Below, in pieces: positions 10,210 through 24,839 of a stretch of DNA of 29,804 nucleotides (within the stretch, counting starts at the first letter, position 1; the number at the start of each line of letters is the position of its first letter). Source of the DNA: a virus (taxonomy: Duplodnaviria; Heunggongvirae; Uroviricota; Caudoviricetes); IMG/VR virus record IMGVR_UViG_2639762982_000016, positions 1 through 29,804 of that record, one strand, 5' to 3'. Both the position numbers and the translations under genes were made by a program. The notes under the pieces are model-generated. The model was not told where the DNA came from. It searched no databases and saw nothing but the letters and a program-made list of their open reading frames with translations.

Positions 10210-10535
10210 TCACCTCCGTTACCGTACAGAGTTTCAGCCGCTGATTTTTCTACATCCCTGGAAACAGGAGCGATCGCCATATCAGTGATCTGCAGATCGG
10301 CGCTGCGATTAACACCATCGTCAGTTTCTCTGGCAGACAGGCCTCGAATAACAGCCTTTGCAGTTATCATCACTTCTGTTCCGACGCCCTGAGGTTGCGC
10401 CTTCAGCTTATTCAATGTGTCGTTATTAAGAGTGATGCACAGCCCCCACGGGTATTCATCGCGAGTTCTGGTTTCTCCGCTCTCATCCTGGTAGCTGTCA
10501 GTGCCGGTTTTGAGGTTTACGAGTTCCATATACAC
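10206..10535 (-). CDS. Hypothetical virion-module protein (109 aa)
   Basis: ORF track; 4-nt overlap with the downstream gene; preceded by a hairpin at 10547-10564. Confidence 0.5.
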   Translation of the reverse strand: MYMELVNLKTGTDSYQDESGETRTRDEYPWGLCITLNNDTLNKLKAQPQGVGTEVMITAKAVIRGLSARETDDGVNRSADLQITDMAIAPVSRDVEKSAAETLYGNGGE

Positions 10536-10546
10536 TCCTGCAATAA

Positions 10547-10564
10547 AGGGGCCGAAGCCCCTTG
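10547..10564 (-). terminator. Hairpin GGGGC-UUCG-GCCCC followed by a U-rich tract; candidate partial terminator between head and tail genes
   Basis: Minus strand reads AAGGGGCTTCGGCCCCTTTATTG in the gap between the 114-aa and 109-aa genes. Confidence 0.4.
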
Positions 10565-10579
10565 TCGGATTCGCGAGGC

Positions 10580-10924
10580 TTACACGCCCAGTTCTTTACG
10601 CTTATCTGCGATCTTCTCGCGGAGCGTTTCGGCTTTAGCGTTATGGTGTGGCTTCTCGTTAAAGAGCAATTCGTACTCTTCACGGAGCTTATCCAGTTCA
10701 CCATCATCTGACACATCGTTGATGATTTTGGTGCTGGTTGCTGCCATAGACACCTTTCCTGCTACCTTTGCTTTTGCCTGTCTGGCTGCATCGTTAACAG
10801 GTTCCAGTGCGCTACCAGGCTCACCTTCGTATTCGATTTCTTCCCCCTCCGGCCACAGTGTGTTATGGATATGAGAGAGGCGCAGAACGCGGTATCTTGG
10901 TTTCTCACCTGACATCGATATCAC
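10580..10924 (-). CDS. Hypothetical head-module protein (114 aa)
   Basis: ORF track; lies between a head accessory gene and a hairpin. Confidence 0.5.
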   Translation of the reverse strand: MISMSGEKPRYRVLRLSHIHNTLWPEGEEIEYEGEPGSALEPVNDAARQAKAKVAGKVSMAATSTKIINDVSDDGELDKLREEYELLFNEKPHHNAKAETLREKIADKRKELGV

Positions 10925-10925
10925 C

Positions 10926-11363
10926 TTAACCAGTTACTTTTGAGCGGATCGGGTACGGCGTATTGGCATCAACATCCAGACTGATACCCGCAGTGAATTT
11001 GCCGGCCGTTAGTGGGCCAGTTGCGACGGAGTAGTTAACACGCAGATATCGCTGAACACCGGCAGGCACCTTTGCAGAAACAACTCGTTTACCTGCTGTC
11101 AGGGTAGCCTTTGCCAGTGCGCCACTATCATAAATAGTGGACCATGAGCTGTTATTCTCACTCGTCTGCAACTGGATGTTTACAGTTGCCTCACCACTTG
11201 CCGTGGCGGCTTCGTTAACCAGCACCCAAAACTCAAGCGGATAACCCACGCCGATATCGCGACGGTTTCCATCAATTGGACCGAGATCGATTACGTCAGT
11301 AGAAGCCGCGGTATTCGTAACCGCCTGAGCTTCGGAGAACATCAACAGTTTGTCGGTGATCAT
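10926..11363 (-). CDS. Putative head accessory / decoration protein (145 aa)
   Basis: Small Thr/Ala/Ser-rich protein immediately downstream of the major capsid gene; call is by position only. Confidence 0.35.
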   Translation of the reverse strand: MITDKLLMFSEAQAVTNTAASTDVIDLGPIDGNRRDIGVGYPLEFWVLVNEAATASGEATVNIQLQTSENNSSWSTIYDSGALAKATLTAGKRVVSAKVPAGVQRYLRVNYSVATGPLTAGKFTAGISLDVDANTPYPIRSKVTG

Positions 11364-11378
11364 CTTCTTTCTCCATTA

Positions 11379-11398
11379 GTGGGTCTGTTACGACCCAC
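11379..11398 (-). terminator. Hairpin directly after the major capsid gene (GTGGGTC-loop-GACCCAC); attenuator or mRNA-stabilising stem
   Basis: 7-bp perfect inverted repeat immediately 3' of the capsid stop, followed by the RBS of the next gene; no strong U-tract. Confidence 0.3.
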
Positions 11399-11414
11399 AG
11401 GTTAATAACAGGCG

Positions 11415-12407
11415 TTACACCACGCGGGCTTCTGTTTCCAGAAGCGCATCAGTTTCACGGATTGGTACACCACGGAATGAAGTCCACCACTCGCCTTCTG
11501 TCTCTTTTACGCTGATCGCCAGAGATGTTTTCTCCAGAGATTGCAGATCAAGAGCCTGGCCTACAGTGCGGTTCATGTAGAACACCGGGCGACCCATTCC
11601 ACGGTTTGGAATGCGATGCAGTGCTTTAACCATCAACTTCGCAATATTTGCGGCAGAGGAAGGTTCTGAAAGATTGCTGACATCGATGTTTGCAATGCGA
11701 ACAACATAACGCCAGTCACGCAGAGCAAGTCCGTTGTCCCATTTGTAATGGGTGCGATAGCCTTCGTACTTGCCGCCATTAGCATCTTCCAGTGTCACCT
11801 GGCCTTTATCTTCCATCTGGATGCCAGCCTTCTGCCCTTTCGGGAAGATGCCATGCACGGTGTTTTCGCCCCACACCACTAACCAGATTGAGGTGTTATC
11901 TGTACCCGTGCCACCAGCATCAATGATGTTCTGAGCATTACCCGCAGACAGGCTGGAATAGCGGGAGGACAGTCCCATAAACTGCTGAGGGTTAACGCTG
12001 GAATCACCATAAAACAGCGTCTGCGCCATCTGCTGATTCATCGCTTCAATAAATGCGCGGTCTTCAGACAGGCGGAATTCAGCGGAATTGCCGTTCAGAT
12101 CAGCCAGTGATTTATCGACTTCAGCATAGGTTTCCAGCATGCCAACGGAATCGGTTACCTGCACTGTGGTTGATTTGCTTGGCTGTACGCCATAGTTCAG
12201 CAAACGCCAGGTAGCTGAAGGTAAACCAGAACGAATGGTGGTTCGGTGTCCGGTAGGAAGGTTCCCTTCGACAAAAGGCATATCCTGAAGGATCGGGTTA
12301 GTTTGACCGAGAAGCTCGATAATCTTATCGACTTTCCCGTTTGGATCGACGCGCTTACCCCAGTCAGCCAGCGTTAGCGCAGTTAAGCCTTTAACAGCCA
12401 TTGTCAT
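11415..12407 (-). CDS. Major capsid protein (330 aa)
   Basis: ORF track; follows the scaffold-like gene and is followed by a hairpin; size typical of podovirus major capsid proteins (for example epsilon15-type, about 335 aa). Confidence 0.7.
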   Translation of the reverse strand: MTMAVKGLTALTLADWGKRVDPNGKVDKIIELLGQTNPILQDMPFVEGNLPTGHRTTIRSGLPSATWRLLNYGVQPSKSTTVQVTDSVGMLETYAEVDKSLADLNGNSAEFRLSEDRAFIEAMNQQMAQTLFYGDSSVNPQQFMGLSSRYSSLSAGNAQNIIDAGGTGTDNTSIWLVVWGENTVHGIFPKGQKAGIQMEDKGQVTLEDANGGKYEGYRTHYKWDNGLALRDWRYVVRIANIDVSNLSEPSSAANIAKLMVKALHRIPNRGMGRPVFYMNRTVGQALDLQSLEKTSLAISVKETEGEWWTSFRGVPIRETDALLETEARVV

Positions 12408-15100: not shown

Positions 15101-15307
15101 TTACTGACCAAGCAGCGTTTTACCGCTGGTATTAGCGGTTGATGTGTCGCCCTGAGAACCGGTAAGCAGCGTAGAACTACGACCAGCAGCAGCGCGACGG
15201 CGACGTGTTTCTTCGTCGCGGGCATCAACAACGGCGGCATCCTGCTCCTGTGGTGCTGCCTGAACTTCTGGTGTTGCAGGCACTGATGGTGAGCTACCCA
15301 TGCACAT
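15101..15307 (-). CDS. Possible small low-complexity protein (68 aa) upstream of the portal gene
   Basis: Has RBS GGAG-TCATTGAT-ATG nearly identical to the portal initiation region; low-complexity composition, so it may not be a real gene. Confidence 0.25.
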   Translation of the reverse strand: MCMGSSPSVPATPEVQAAPQEQDAAVVDARDEETRRRRAAAGRSSTLLTGSQGDTSTANTSGKTLLGQ

Positions 15308-15375
15308 ATCAATGACTCCGTACGCAATTAAATTATTACCAATTTAACCATATATGATTTATTTATCGTAGATAG

Positions 15376-15412
15376 TTGACATTTAACGCACGAATTATTA
15401 CCTTTCAGGTAA
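15376..15412 (+). promoter_or_regulatory. Candidate sigma70 promoter (TTGACA, 17-nt spacer, TACCTT) overlapped by an operator-like palindrome TTACCtttcaGGTAA at 15398-15412
   Basis: Consensus -35 hexamer at 15376-15381; the -10 match is weak (3 of 6); the palindrome matches the motif found in the immunity region. Confidence 0.35.
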
Positions 15413-15734
15413 GTAAAGGGTTCATTCCGGTTACTAACCTGACTGGCTTGTCGTTAAATTGAACAGGTGGAGTGAGCTTTTATTTTGAGCAGTACGGCGT
15501 ATGGCACATGCGCCGATAGCGGTCTGGATACGTTTAAGGGGCACCCTCCCTTGCTCGGGCAAACGAACCAGGTAGCCGGAATGTGCAAGTCGAGCGGTTT
15601 TATTCCGCGCACGGGGATTCACCATCCCGGCGATTCGGTGTGACGCCTCGGAAGAGACGAGGGTACAACGATGAGAGCATTTATGGAGCCGCGACAAAGT
15701 GTGGCGCCTTAACAGGCTAAGTGCTCTCAGCGTT

Positions 15735-15811
15735 GTGGCATTAGCTCAGTCGGACAGAGCAACCGCCTTCTAAGCGGTTGGTCGCAGGTTCGAATCCTGC
15801 ATGCCACGCCA
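15735..15811 (+). tRNA. tRNA-Arg, anticodon UCU (reads AGA), with encoded CCA
   Basis: Hand-folded cloverleaf: 7-bp acceptor stem GTGGCAT/ATGCCAC, D-arm GCTC..GAGC, anticodon stem ACCGC/GCGGT with loop CTTCTAA, T-arm GCAGG-TTCGAAT-CCTGC, discriminator G, then CCA. Resembles but is not identical to the host argU sequence as I recall it. Confidence 0.85.
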
Positions 15812-15854
15812 GAATCACGCCTAAGGACCGTGATGCCAGAAGTTCCAGGTGCTT

Positions 15855-15896
15855 GGCGGTGATGGTTTCCCTTGAAGGACTATCACCGCCCTTTTT
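15855..15896 (+). terminator. Long-loop hairpin (GGCGGTGAT...ATCACCGCC) followed by CTTTTT; possible terminator after the tRNA
   Basis: 9-bp inverted repeat with an 18-nt loop and a T-tract. Confidence 0.35.
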
Positions 15897-15974
15897 ACAG
15901 CAGGACGCCATTGCGATGACTTCATGCTGTAAACCCGTACAGCCACGGAAGGCATAACTCATTGCTTCCAGTTC

Positions 15975-15998
15975 GCCCGGTTCGCCGGGCATTTTTTT
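15975..15998 (+). terminator. Strong intrinsic terminator (GCCCGG-TTCG-CCGGGC plus T7) 12 nt upstream of the next start codon
   Basis: 6-bp GC stem, UUCG tetraloop, seven T residues. Confidence 0.6.
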
Positions 15999-16009
15999 AA
16001 GGTGAGATT

Positions 16010-16381
16010 ATGAACGACCAGCAAATCGAAAAAGAAATCGTTGAGAAAGGCAAAACGGCACCGCGCGTTACGCCAGACCATATCGAAGGCATTATTGCTC
16101 AGGAGGCATATTTCACAGCAGAAGATGGTGCCTTTGGCAAAGCCATAAAAGCGAAACATACTGGCGGAGAGGTAAACTACCAGCCGCACGAATCACTTTC
16201 TCTGCTGACGTTCTGCGTCCTGGTATTGCGCAACGGCTTCACCGTCACCGGAGAGAGTGCCTGTGCAAGTCCGGAAAATTTTGATGCAGAAATTGGTCGG
16301 AAGATTGCCCGGCAGAATGCTGTAAACAAAATCTGGATGCTCGAAGGTTACTTGCTGAAGCAGAAGCTAAGCGAGCAATAA
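16010..16381 (+). CDS. Small phage protein (123 aa), probably Gp49-like (N4 Gp49 / Sf6 gene 66 family); possible accessory (moron) gene
   Basis: RBS AAGGTGAGA; the motif block LTFCVLVLRNGFTVTGESACASPENFDAEIGRKIARQNA matches my recollection of that family; it is oppositely oriented to the flanking late genes. Confidence 0.5.
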   Translation: MNDQQIEKEIVEKGKTAPRVTPDHIEGIIAQEAYFTAEDGAFGKAIKAKHTGGEVNYQPHESLSLLTFCVLVLRNGFTVTGESACASPENFDAEIGRKIARQNAVNKIWMLEGYLLKQKLSEQ

Positions 16382-17947: not shown

Positions 17948-18540
17948 TGATTACCATCCTGACGTTCTTTGAGTCGCTTCCTGGCTGCCGCTATGCGATC
18001 AGCAATTGTCACATTCACATTAACATCCAGGCGTTCTTTGAACGCGTTGACGTCGACGTGCTTACCAATCAGTTCGAGGTTCTTCACCTTGTCAGGCCAT
18101 TTAATTTTTTTGAGGATTGTCTCTATCGAATCCTCGTTCATGTTCATGATGGTCGATGACAGATCAAAGCCGCTAAGCGTAGTGCGCCAGATTTTCGGCC
18201 ACTCGCGGATTGGCTTAAGGCTCCCATCGTCGTTGAGGATGTCGATCACGTCCATCTGGTCGATCTCCACCAGGCGCATGAGAACGTAATCAGCACTGAC
18301 GCGCATTCGTTTGTTGCGCTCCTCCATCAACTCGGCAATCCGTTTTTGAATGCGTTCATCGCGCATCATGACACTGGCTTTAACTGCCGCTGTATTTGGG
18401 GAGAATCCTGCGTTAATCGCTGCCTGAGTCTGGTTTTCAGGCGTTTTGATGTATGACTGGCAATAAGCCTCCTGCATTGCTGTGAGCGGCTTAAATTGCG
18501 TTGATTTGCGTTTATAGGTTTTAGGTTCAGCAGGCATCAT
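17944..18540 (-). CDS. Terminase small subunit (about 198 aa)
   Basis: Motif KPLTAMQEAYCQSYIKTPENQTQAAINAGFSPNTAAVKAS resembles small terminase (Terminase_2-type) N-termini. The ORF track extends to 18618 with a TTG start; I prefer ATG at 18540, but the start is uncertain. Confidence 0.65.
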   Translation of the reverse strand: MMPAEPKTYKRKSTQFKPLTAMQEAYCQSYIKTPENQTQAAINAGFSPNTAAVKASVMMRDERIQKRIAELMEERNKRMRVSADYVLMRLVEIDQMDVIDILNDDGSLKPIREWPKIWRTTLSGFDLSSTIMNMNEDSIETILKKIKWPDKVKNLELIGKHVDVNAFKERLDVNVNVTIADRIAAARKRLKERQDGNQ

Positions 18541-18579
18541 AACCACCGTGGTAATAGTTACCGTTGTGGTAATAGTACC

Positions 18580-20739: not shown

Positions 20740-21348
20740 TCATGCCGATCTATTTTTCATCAGTGATTCATAAAACTTTTGCCACTTATGCCGACCGAAA
20801 TTAGCCTTCGAGTTACAGCTCGAACAAAGACAAATAAGGTTCTCCTGACGACAGTCTTGTTTGTCGTAATTGATATGATGAGTTGTTAGCCTTTTGTCTG
20901 TTCCATCACAACCTGGGTTCTGACAAGTAAAACCATCTCGCTCAATAACCCTCTTGCTCGTTTCTCGGAAATCCCACGGATACGGCAATCTCGATAATCC
21001 ACCAGACCAGTTTGGATTTCCTTCCCCCTTCATCAGAGAAGAACGCATTATGTTGGAACACTGTTTCGAGCAGCATTTATGACGCTTCTCATGACTCAAG
21101 AAAACGGAGAACGAAGATCCGCATACGCAGCATATTTTTAATACTCGCTTTAGTTCCCGATTTACCGTCTTGCCTCGCTGTGAAATTCCTACACACTGAA
21201 GTGAGCAGAACCTTGAAGAGGAGTTGGCTCGCTTAACCTGATATTGCCTGCCACATACGGAGCAAACCTTTTCGATTTTCCCACCCTTCCAATTCGGGTT
21301 TTTATCACCGGATACAATCAATCCCGCAGCATTGGGCTTCTCGCTCAT
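20740..21348 (-). CDS. HNH endonuclease (202 aa)
   Basis: Multiple Cys pairs and the motif HHINYDKQDCRQENLICLCSSCNSKAN typical of HNH nucleases; start overlaps the upstream gene stop (ATGA). Confidence 0.75.
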   Translation of the reverse strand: MSEKPNAAGLIVSGDKNPNWKGGKIEKVCSVCGRQYQVKRANSSSRFCSLQCVGISQRGKTVNRELKRVLKICCVCGSSFSVFLSHEKRHKCCSKQCSNIMRSSLMKGEGNPNWSGGLSRLPYPWDFRETSKRVIERDGFTCQNPGCDGTDKRLTTHHINYDKQDCRQENLICLCSSCNSKANFGRHKWQKFYESLMKNRSA

Positions 21349-21698
21349 AGTTCCTCAACCTCCCATCCACCACCGAGCTTTTTAGGTTTTGGATAAGCAA
21401 CCTGAAAGACAAACGGATAGCTGTCTGCCGCAACCTTCATCTTGACTCTCGCATCGTCAGTAAAGACTGACTTACTTCCCTTAACGTCCACCATCACCAA
21501 CTGCCCGTCAGCCAACATCACGGCAAAATCTACAGTCAGGAAGCAGTTGTCAGCCAGCCGCAGCTTGATACCCTCGAACCGATACCAGGCGACTTCCCCT
21601 GCACGTTTACGCTGCTCAAGGTGCTGGCAATACGCAGATTATGTTTTGTTCATCTGGCCTGTTTTGAGTCGACCAAGAGCCTGTATCTGTTTTCTCAT
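21345..21698 (-). pseudogene. Small conserved phage gene interrupted by an in-frame TAA at codon 20
   Basis: ATG at 21698 with RBS AGAGGT; translation MRKQIQALGRLKTGQMNKT, then a stop at 21641-21639, then the same frame continues SAYCQHLEQRKRAGEVAWYRFEGIKLRLADNCF... to a stop overlapping the HNH start. Confidence 0.55.
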
Positions 21699-21701
21699 GA
21701 T

Positions 21702-21778
21702 TTACCTCTGAGGTAATTAAAAACCACATAAGACACGAAATCAATAGATCTAAGAATATTTTGTTACCTATTAGGTAA
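21702..21778. promoter_or_regulatory. Two perfect operator-like palindromes TTACC-N5-GGTAA (21702-21716 and 21764-21778) between the P-like gene and the downstream genes
   Basis: TTACCtctgaGGTAA and TTACCtattaGGTAA; the first overlaps the RBS of the interrupted gene; a candidate TTGATT/TTTAAT promoter lies between them on the minus strand. Confidence 0.45.
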
Positions 21779-23569: not shown

Positions 23570-23687
23570 TCTGGTTACTATCTTCAATTTTTCCGCCCCT
23601 TTTTGTTATTGATATTGGCTATTTTGCACAATTGGAAAATTTGATCAACCGGATTTGGTTTTTTATTACCTTTGAGGTACGAATAGA

Positions 23688-23735: not shown

Positions 23736-23966
23736 TCATGAGTAGAAGAAGTATGCCAGTTCTGCTTTTGAGCGCAGCCATTGTCTTGTTTTACAGGCTT
23801 TAAAAAGCCCATTCATCAATACCTTACCTGGCATTTTGCGCTTACCTGTTAAGTGAGTCTGGATATAGTGACTCGTCGTTCCGGCTTCCTGTGCGAAGGC
23901 TTCACGCTCATCCGGAGTAAGTGCAAGCCAGTGCTTTTTGAAATCGAAATGTCCGTTATCGCTCAT
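23736..23966 (-). CDS. Cro-like transcriptional regulator (76 aa)
   Basis: Small gene divergent from the repressor across an operator cluster, followed by a terminator; likely HTH near ALTPDEREAFAQEAGTTSHYIQ. Confidence 0.5.
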   Translation of the reverse strand: MSDNGHFDFKKHWLALTPDEREAFAQEAGTTSHYIQTHLTGKRKMPGKVLMNGLFKACKTRQWLRSKAELAYFFYS

Positions 23967-24002
23967 AGCTATTGCCTGATATTTATTTCAGATAATAAAT
24001 AT

Positions 24003-24065
24003 TCACCCATAAGGTAACAAAAATCAAGGATAGTTACCTATGGGGTGCATTTACCTGTTGGGTAA
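24003..24065. promoter_or_regulatory. OR-like operator cluster with three TTACC-N5-GGTAA-type sites (24003-24017 imperfect, 24034-24048 imperfect, 24051-24065 perfect) between the Cro-like and repressor genes
   Basis: TCACCcataaGGTAA, TTACCtatggGGTGC, TTACCtgttgGGTAA; a candidate minus-strand promoter overlaps them. Confidence 0.55.
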
Positions 24066-24120
24066 TATTGCTTTAAATTGAATCATCTACTGATTCATAT
24101 ATGAGGCGATTTTCCAGAAA

Positions 24121-24705
24121 ATGAAAAGTATCCAGGACGTCCGCAGGCAAAATCTCAACGACTTGATCGACCGTGAATTCAATGGTGTTCAGACGCGGAT
24201 GGCAGAAAAACTTGGAACTCAGGCAAATCTGGTAAACCGCTGGGCTCTTGGCAAGAAGGTTATCGGCGACCAGGTTGCGCGAAAAATTGAAGCTGCCGCC
24301 AATAAACCCCGTAACTGGCTTGATATCGATCGCTCGCTTTCTCAGGAAGGTTTTCAGCCTGTCGGCCCAAGCGACATTGGTCAGCTGGCGGCTCACAACC
24401 TGGAACGCTGGATGAGCGAAAGCCGCGACCTTTCAACACAGGGAAAACTTCACCGCGCATCCGGCGTCGCCCAGGTGACAATCAGCCGCCTGTTAAACAA
24501 TGAGGTCAGCGTTTCCATTTCCACCCTGGAGAATGTTGCATCCGCATTCGGGCGTCACGGCTATGAATTACTGATTCACCCGCACGACCCTGCGACCATC
24601 AACTATGACCGCTCGCGCTACGCATTGTTACCCGAAACCGAGAAAGCAAAGATCGAAAGTTACATTGAATTTGTCATCAACCAGAACGAAAAAAACAAAC
24701 AATAA
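24121..24705 (+). CDS. Immunity repressor candidate with two HTH domains and no recognisable S24 peptidase domain (194 aa)
   Basis: Divergent from the Cro-like gene; HTH-like segments at about residues 25-45 and 110-135; no Ser/Lys autocleavage motifs seen; followed by a terminator. Confidence 0.6.
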   Translation: MKSIQDVRRQNLNDLIDREFNGVQTRMAEKLGTQANLVNRWALGKKVIGDQVARKIEAAANKPRNWLDIDRSLSQEGFQPVGPSDIGQLAAHNLERWMSESRDLSTQGKLHRASGVAQVTISRLLNNEVSVSISTLENVASAFGRHGYELLIHPHDPATINYDRSRYALLPETEKAKIESYIEFVINQNEKNKQ

Positions 24706-24726
24706 AATCATATTTTTCAGTAAGTA

Positions 24727-24750
24727 AGCCGCCTTCTGGCGGCTTTTTTA
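24727..24750 (+). terminator. Intrinsic terminator after the repressor gene (AGCCGCC-TTCT-GGCGGCT plus T6)
   Basis: Perfect 7-bp stem and a T-tract. Confidence 0.65.
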
Positions 24751-24762
24751 TTGCCTGCACAA

Positions 24763-24839
24763 TTACCTTAAGGGTAATTTTTTTAACTCATATCTATTGA
24801 CACCAAACCAAATACGCATAATCATTACCTCAACGGTAA
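24763..24839 (+). promoter_or_regulatory. OL/PL-like region: two perfect TTACC-N5-GGTAA sites (24763-24777, 24825-24839) flanking a TTGACA -35 hexamer (24797-24802)
   Basis: TTACCttaagGGTAA and TTACCtcaacGGTAA; the -10 candidate AATCAT at 17-nt spacing abuts the second site. Confidence 0.5.

Follow-up and report, generated by a model that had tools for sequence, protein, structure and literature searches.

The gene rep, at positions 24121-24705 (plus strand) of the virus record IMGVR_UViG_2639762982_000016, whose whole analysed stretch of 29,804 nucleotides is referred to here as the window, very probably encodes the lysogeny-maintenance repressor of an E. coli prophage of the epsilon15/phiV10 type, a member of the SPC32H Rep family that would escape cleavage upon induction and be removed by an antirepressor (Ant) under the control of LexA. 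As a whole, the window represents a phage genome of the epsilon15/phiV10 type (Uetakevirus); in the surroundings of rep it shows 97-98% identity with phiV10, TL-2011b and vB_EcoP_ZX5 (ZX5), and the encoded protein, Rep, is 100% identical in phiV10 (p40), ZX5 (ORF21), PAS61, phiv142-3, EC.W1-9 and others. Rep, its two helix-turn-helix (HTH) motifs and the antirepressor mechanism of the family are already known in databases and the literature, the GenBank note for phiV10p40 reading 'two helix-turn-helix motifs (PF01381); similar to putative repressor epsilon15p38', and the discovery value is small since both the protein and the mechanism have been described.

Assignment to the SPC32H Rep family draws on full-length homology, on the architecture of the protein and on its genomic position together with a common operator motif. 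In a phmmer search, residues 1-190 of Rep matched the 199-residue 'Repressor' chain (5d50_A) of PDB 5D50, the Rep-Ant complex of Salmonella phage SPC32H, with E=4e-42, and a search of solved structures also returned the C-terminal fragment of PDB 5D4Z, the Rep C-terminal tetramer. SPC32H is syntenic with the window throughout, and tblastn of Rep against it gave 41.8% identity over 98% of the query (42% to the Rep proteins of both SPC32H and epsilon15), distributed as 54% in the N-terminal domain, 32% in the middle domain and 43% in the C-terminal arm.

An immunity repressor had been proposed in the first-pass annotation, in accordance with published results for the identical ORF21 of ZX5, whose overexpression abolished free phage and decreased the transcription of endolysin and holin by 99.99% and 99.97%, respectively (PMC9782041), and with the existence of a crystallised 42% homologue, SPC32H Rep. 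A weak HigA match (TIGR02607, E=0.0012, far below the cut-off) and the annotation 'VapI antidote' in the record of phage BP9 might instead suggest a generic XRE/HigA-type regulator or an antitoxin, but no toxin partner was found, a divergent cro-like gene lies next to rep with three operators between them, and both the overexpression phenotype and the full-length homology to a crystallised phage repressor speak for immunity, so that such a function appears highly improbable.

Protein architecture and absence of a peptidase domain

As described in PMC9986798, SPC32H Rep consists of an N-terminal DNA-binding domain, a middle dimerisation domain (MDD) and a C-terminal arm (CAD), the latter with a p53-like 'TetDloop' that tetramerises Rep and binds the antirepressor. 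The same source states that the protein binds DNA as a tetramer, the dimer binding weakly, and that the pairs of DNA-binding domains which read a palindrome belong to different dimers (PMC9986798).

Rep of the window was examined with an AlphaFold2 (AF2) model built on a 29-sequence alignment, with a mean predicted local distance difference test (pLDDT) of 78, and with domain and structure searches. The predicted N-terminal HTH DNA-binding domain (residues 1-70 approximately; 24121-24330, plus strand), to which this role is assigned from work on the homologue (PMC9986798), displays helices at residues 4-19, 24-31, 35-43 and 50-59, with YdaS/HTH matches at 20-61, and its predicted recognition helix comprises residues 35-43 (ANLVNRWAL), of which N36, R40 and W41 are invariant, the NLVNRW region being conserved in all homologues of the alignment. 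A flexible linker follows (residues 71-84 approximately; 24331-24372, plus strand), with pLDDT below 50 at residues 74-83 and a variable, gapped alignment; the disordered linker in the model spans residues 60-83. The second domain, of HTH_3 type (residues 85-152 approximately; 24373-24576, plus strand), was identified by Pfam, AF2 and Foldseek, is equivalent to the MDD of SPC32H Rep, the role of which is taken from PMC9986798, and is modelled as a five-helix bundle (residues 83-151). The C-terminal arm (residues 153-194 approximately; 24577-24702, plus strand), equivalent to the CAD/TetDloop of SPC32H Rep in the alignment with 5d50_A/5d4z_A up to residue 190, is modelled as a short low-confidence extended segment followed by a long helix (172-193).

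The two HTH-like segments claimed in the first-pass annotation are borne out by independent methods: Pfam matched HTH_3 in two stretches, the best at residues 106-147 (E=1.2e-9), together with weaker Cro/YdaS/HigA-type HTH matches over residues 20-61, PHROG repressor families match residues 1-76 and 92-152 separately, and AF2 places bundles at 4-59 and 83-151. NCBIfam gave sub-threshold matches only (RstR, HigA, TreR). The significant Foldseek PDB matches of the model (E<=0.001) were exclusively chains of 5d50/5d4z, with template modelling (TM) scores of 0.67-0.73 against 5d4z. An origin of the tandem HTH by internal duplication was considered and rejected, as residues 1-72 and 85-194 gave no BLASTP alignment at E<=100; the two halves show no mutual sequence similarity, and therefore no recent duplication is indicated, the fold class alone being in common. 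By homology to SPC32H Rep, the second HTH is likely to be a dimerisation module and not a second reader of DNA, and the C-terminal arm, with a putative role in tetramerisation and Ant binding, constitutes a third element that had been missed.

Likewise, the claims that Rep lacks an S24 peptidase and does not cleave itself are in agreement with the domain assignment, in which Pfam gave no Peptidase_S24 (PF00717) match at E<=1, with the Foldseek PDB matches of the model, none of which has the LexA/CI C-terminal fold, and with the whole protein sequence, in which neither Ala-Gly nor Cys-Gly occurs and cysteine is altogether absent. About 42 residues remain C-terminal to the second HTH, and the part after the linker, which makes up an all-helical C-terminal half in the model, corresponds to the C-terminal part of SPC32H Rep, whose solved structure is not that of a protease. 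A RecA-stimulated self-cleavage at a non-canonical site, in the manner of lambda CI or LexA, could be argued from the ZX5 lysogen, which carries the identical Rep and is inducible by mitomycin C, from 1e7 to 1e9 PFU (plaque-forming units)/mL (PMC9782041). This observation, taken alone, is equally expected of a cleavable repressor, but SOS inducibility is also accounted for by the LexA-boxed ant gene of the relatives, described below, and together with the lack of an S24 domain or fold and of a scissile dipeptide this leaves self-cleavage with almost no likelihood.

The antirepressor locus

SPC32H Rep is inactivated by a tetrameric antirepressor, Ant, according to two sources (PMC9638917, PMC9986798), and a third states that self-cleavage of LexA permits antirepressor synthesis in SPC32H, in the Gifsy phages and in coliphage 186 (PMC7380047). 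In the absence of a cleavable repressor, an antirepressor or another inactivation route had been deemed necessary, a view supported by the fact that relatives of the window carry Ant behind a LexA box and that the homologous SPC32H Rep is inactivated by Ant.

In ZX5, an 85-residue 'hypothetical protein' (2089-2346) has 5d50_E, the Ant chain, as its sole significant PDB match (E<=0.001), with E=4e-47, and in tblastn has 88% identity to the product of ant in SPC32H. Directly 5' of this small ant gene lies TACTGTATAAATATACAGTT, a near-consensus LexA box (pattern TACTGTAT-N-ATACAGT), an arrangement also found in TL-2011b and SPC32H, and ant adjoins the tailspike gene in the relatives. Full-length homologues of Rep occur in 36 phage records, of which 35 also encode the small Ant, including all complete-genome records with an identical Rep, the exception being BP9. 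No Pfam family exists for it and it is labelled 'hypothetical protein' wherever annotated in the E. coli phage records matched, which explains why domain-based scans miss it.

The window itself had been said to contain no obvious antirepressor, and none was found: tblastn with Bro-N-Ant, P22-type Ant and Arc gave no antirepressor homologue in the window, and Pfam detected no Bro-N, ANT, KilA-N or P22_AR_N in 15 open reading frames (ORFs) outside rep and the cro-like gene, namely three small ones beside rep, nine of the early region plus 16010-16381, and two more early-left. The families present in these 15 ORFs are DnaT, lambda P, HNH/zinc-finger, Ead/Ea22, DUF4752, DUF551, gp49_66, AlpA, PerC and MT-A70. 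The lack of an antirepressor is probably due to the window ending in an insertion sequence (IS) just short of the place where relatives carry ant. Positions 1-191 are the end of an IS3-family element, copies of which, matching at 100%, are present in thousands of E. coli genomes, and alignments with phage relatives begin only at position 192. The element breaks into the last of the large virion structural genes (ORF 178-1848, minus strand), and in SPC32H about 200 nt separate the end of this gene from ant.

A scan of the window for LexA boxes (CTGT-N8-ACAG, at most one mismatch) gave 10 matches, 10.6 being expected. Two perfect cores were judged to be chance occurrences: the one at 15927-15942, CTGTAAACCCGTACAG, is GC-rich inside and broken by an indel in SPC32H, and the other, at 11385, falls in the structural-gene block, where it separates the coding ORFs 10926-11363 and 11415-12407 and is covered by a further, overlapping ORF (10096-11600).

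In E. coli relatives the Ant domain occurs at two to three places per genome, and in Salmonella relatives at one. The loci with Ant-like domains extend over 1078-2437 in ZX5 and 5301-9612 in TL-2011b, where operator motifs flank the genes, and the P22_AR_N-Ant fusion gene of TL-2011b adjoins an Arc-like gene. The inducer could thus be a longer protein with an Ant domain (Bro-N-Ant or P22_AR_N-Ant), or several antirepressors could act in parallel on different signals. Besides the additional Ant-domain places in E. coli relatives, this possibility is supported by the C-terminal 80 or so residues of the Bro-N protein (ZX5 ORF4, TL-2011b gp46), which match 5d50_E with E=1e-13, by the P22-type antirepressor of TL-2011b (gp42, P22_AR_N), which ends in the same Ant-like domain, and by the overexpression of ZX5 ORF4, which reduced prophage counts from 1e9 to 1e6 and rep transcription by 75% (PMC9782041). 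However, it is the small Ant, with its LexA box, that is conserved in nearly all Rep-bearing phages; the Salmonella records contain no other form of Ant, and this applies also to SPC32H, for which the mechanism has been solved. A LexA box was not found before the Bro-N gene in ZX5 or TL-2011b. We consequently consider a longer Ant-domain protein, alone or among several antirepressors, an unlikely but serious contender, and the small, LexA-controlled Ant the preferred inducer.

Proposed induction mechanism

Based on the homology to SPC32H Rep, we hypothesize that the N-terminal HTH of Rep reads operator half-sites, that the middle HTH-like domain dimerises the protein and that the C-terminal arm joins two dimers into a DNA-binding tetramer, whose four DNA-binding domains could occupy two operators at once, in keeping with the paired sites described below. 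Upon DNA damage RecA would be activated and LexA, rather than Rep, would cleave itself, vacating the LexA box before the small ant gene, beside the tailspike gene, and allowing the 85-residue Ant to be made. The Ant tetramer would then bind the C-terminal part of Rep, split the Rep tetramer into dimers and free it from DNA, in a reversible process that requires no proteolysis. Ant reportedly acts without competition for the DNA-binding surface of Rep (Kim et al., 2016, PNAS); the work on SPC32H Rep and Ant is credited to Kim & Ryu (2013, J Virol) and to the same 2016 paper.

Since ant sits behind a LexA box in the relatives, induction is expected to remain dependent on RecA and LexA, and for the prophage in the window a route through LexA cleavage, Ant synthesis and Rep removal, still SOS-dependent, is the one we infer. 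The mitomycin C inducibility of the ZX5 lysogen fits an SOS input through LexA and Ant. Accordingly, the absence of an S24 domain does not imply SOS-independent induction, the SOS input entering via LexA control of a tiny antirepressor.

Several points weigh against this reading. The ant gene and its LexA box are outside the window, which ends in the IS element. Binding of the small Ant to a Rep of this type is presumed from homology, and identity between the two Rep proteins does not exceed 32-43% in the C-terminal part that binds Ant, compared with 88% for Ant itself. In ZX5, the Bro-N fusion ORF4 was the only antirepressor put to the test (PMC9782041). The monomer model of Rep has low confidence in the C-terminal arm (low pLDDT at 157-162), and the beta-strand of this arm is absent from it. 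The binding of Rep to the TTACC-N5-GGTAA sites described below is likewise deduced, from their position and conservation. Finally, the IS insertion is accompanied by a nonsense codon in an early gene, the DUF1064 gene (starting at 21697, minus strand; 21640-21697), in which codon 20 is TAA, compared with GAA (Glu) in phiV10p45, and therefore this prophage copy may be non-inducible. Both lesions suggest a decaying, probably defective prophage, in which the main remaining function of the intact repressor may be to confer immunity to superinfection.

Beside the broken DUF1064 gene, at 20740-21348 (minus strand), a 202-residue Cys-rich ORF with weak zinc-finger and HNH_3 matches fills a stretch of about 800 bp, the corresponding interval in phiV10 and TL-2011b measuring only about 190 bp, and may be an inserted gene resembling those of homing endonucleases.

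The rep gene and its neighborhood

The rep gene, with 194 codons plus a stop, is defined by its ORF and by the 100% identity of its product to the phiV10, ZX5 and PAS61 repressors. The layout reported in the first-pass annotation, with rep divergent from a Cro-like gene, operators between them and a terminator after rep, was confirmed, all three elements having been located. In contrast, the ambiguity claimed for the start codon (24121 or 24100) did not hold: the codon at 24100 is TAT, and because of an in-frame TGA stop at 24091 position 24121 is the sole possible start. An ATG at 24101 was also rejected, being out of frame and running into a TGA at 24122. The first residues, M1-K2-S3-I4, are unvaried in 29 homologues of 52-88% identity in the alignment. 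The Shine-Dalgarno sequence is indeed poor, consisting of a GAGG 13 nt 5' of 24121, and the SPC32H rep gene is likewise devoid of one.

An intrinsic terminator follows rep at 24726-24753 (plus strand), with an 8-bp stem (24726-24745) containing 6 GC pairs and then a T-run, and the phiV10 record annotates a terminator in the same position. On the other side, the cro-like gene (23736-23966, minus strand; 76 residues) is the first gene of the rightward early operon and matches PHROG 35, 'transcriptional repressor', with E=5.6e-13; its product is 75% identical to SPC32H_042, and its terminator is found at 23714-23695. The AF2 model of the cro-like protein (single sequence, pLDDT 82) is an HTH-like bundle of five helices, whose best PDB matches in Foldseek include YdaS (Cro-like) and the 434 repressor DNA-binding domain, with TM about 0.6 and E>=1; these E-values not being significant, the label 'Cro-like' rests on position plus fold class. 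A sigma-70-like promoter is predicted for this gene by consensus scan only (TTGTTA-17-TATTAT; 23992-24020, minus strand), and a sigma-70-like early-left promoter of the recE/recT operon (TTGACA-17-AATCAT; 24797-24825, plus strand) matches the consensus at 10 of 12 positions.

Predicted operators

The 15-bp palindrome TTACC-N5-GGTAA occurs in seven perfect copies in the 29.8 kb, all of them intergenic, when about 0.03 would be expected from base frequencies; with up to two mismatches, 27 sites were counted versus 8.1 +/- 2.6 in shuffles. SPC32H contains the same motif at syntenic places and with the same spacings (17, 30 and 62 bp).

Three predicted operators are located between rep and the cro-like gene: TCACCCATAAGGTAA (24003-24017; one mismatch), which overlaps the promoter-like site of the cro-like gene and is syntenic with SPC32H 34437, TTACCTATGGGGTGC (24034-24048; two mismatches; SPC32H 34407), and TTACCTGTTGGGTAA (24051-24065; perfect; SPC32H 34390), 56 bp upstream of the rep ATG, the corresponding distance being 55 bp in SPC32H. 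Two perfect sites found in the motif scan, 62 bp apart, bracket the recE/recT promoter, one upstream of it (24763-24777) and the other abutting its -10 and +1 (24825-24839), and the SPC32H pair 33604/33666 has the same 62-bp spacing. Beyond these sites, the motif is present at four further promoter regions. The motif scan placed an operator-like site with one mismatch after the terminator of the cro-like gene (23666-23680). A perfect pair, again 62 bp apart (21702 and 21764; 21702-21778), lies after the replication genes and before the DUF1064 gene (SPC32H 35972/36034), and two adjacent predicted operators (18540, one mismatch, and 18558, perfect; 18540-18572) lie just upstream of the terminase small-subunit gene; in SPC32H, a site at 12-26 precedes the terminase gene. 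A further perfect site (15398-15412; SPC32H 3175), next to a conserved TTGACA, is located in the interval that separates the portal operon from the tRNA-Arg region.

The motif therefore marks essentially every lytic promoter region: the cro side, early-left, post-replication, terminase and portal. It also lies directly upstream of the ant promoter in SPC32H, ZX5 and TL-2011b. Its presence directly before the terminase, portal and post-replication operons, in a layout shared with SPC32H, suggests direct repression of late genes, as opposed to a control confined to two early promoters.

We may tentatively propose, as a possibility that we do not favor, that Rep is a genome-wide gatekeeper rather than a two-locus switch. 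Were Rep to bind every one of these TTACC-N5-GGTAA sites, it would repress late genes directly and no Q-type cascade would be involved, while ant would answer to both LexA and Rep, resulting in positive feedback and an all-or-none induction switch. A weaker variant of this proposal is that the middle domain, which retains a well-conserved, canonical HTH_3 signature (invariant Q107, Q118 and R123), still contacts DNA.

In the region of the portal-side operator, at 15376-15811, a non-coding stretch of about 320 nt, parts of which are conserved as blocks in SPC32H, separates the conserved TTGACA and the perfect site from tRNA-Arg(tct) (15735-15811). Rfam found nothing except the tRNA in 15300-16050, and the fold z-scores of the 15376-15811 region are -2.5 (plus strand) and -2.1 (minus strand). 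This region could be a repressor-controlled non-coding RNA or a tRNA leader.

Comparison with known systems

The closest protein relatives, phiV10p40 (DQ126339) and ZX5 ORF21 (MW722083; PMC9782041), are 100% identical to Rep, and ZX5 ORF21 has been tested as a repressor; while the proteins show no difference, the copy in the window belongs to a prophage that is interrupted by an IS and bears a nonsense mutation. With the Rep/Ant system of SPC32H, Rep shares full-length homology, the three-part architecture, the cro-like gene and recE/recT neighborhood, and the operator motif with its spacings, and relatives with the identical Rep have an Ant orthologue behind a LexA box. The two systems differ in that overall identity is 42% and the host here is E. 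coli, and in that the E. coli relatives add one or two longer proteins ending in an Ant-like domain. Moreover, tetrameric DNA binding and release by Ant are known for SPC32H Rep, whereas the measurements on the Rep type of the window are those from overexpression.

The Gifsy prophages and coliphage 186 (CI/Tum) resemble this system in having, as stated in PMC7380047, an uncleavable repressor and a LexA-controlled antirepressor that relays the SOS signal, but the searches made here (Pfam, and PDB for the small Ant) brought out no similarity to their repressors and antirepressors. Lambda CI, P22 C2 and LexA offer a comparison of another kind, the layout of the immunity region being in common: the repressor gene diverges from cro, three operators lie in between, a second set is found at early-left, and binding is cooperative and of higher order. 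In contrast to these repressors, Rep has no S24 domain or cleavage site, would oligomerise by an HTH-like domain and a p53-like arm, and has predicted operators also at late-gene promoters. Finally, according to PMC9986798, the Rco/Rap system of the Bacillus plasmid pLS20 combines an XRE-type N-terminal domain, a C-terminal tetramerisation element and a protein antirepressor, as Rep does, although Rco is described there without a middle HTH-like dimerisation domain and governs a switch of plasmid conjugation instead of a phage switch.

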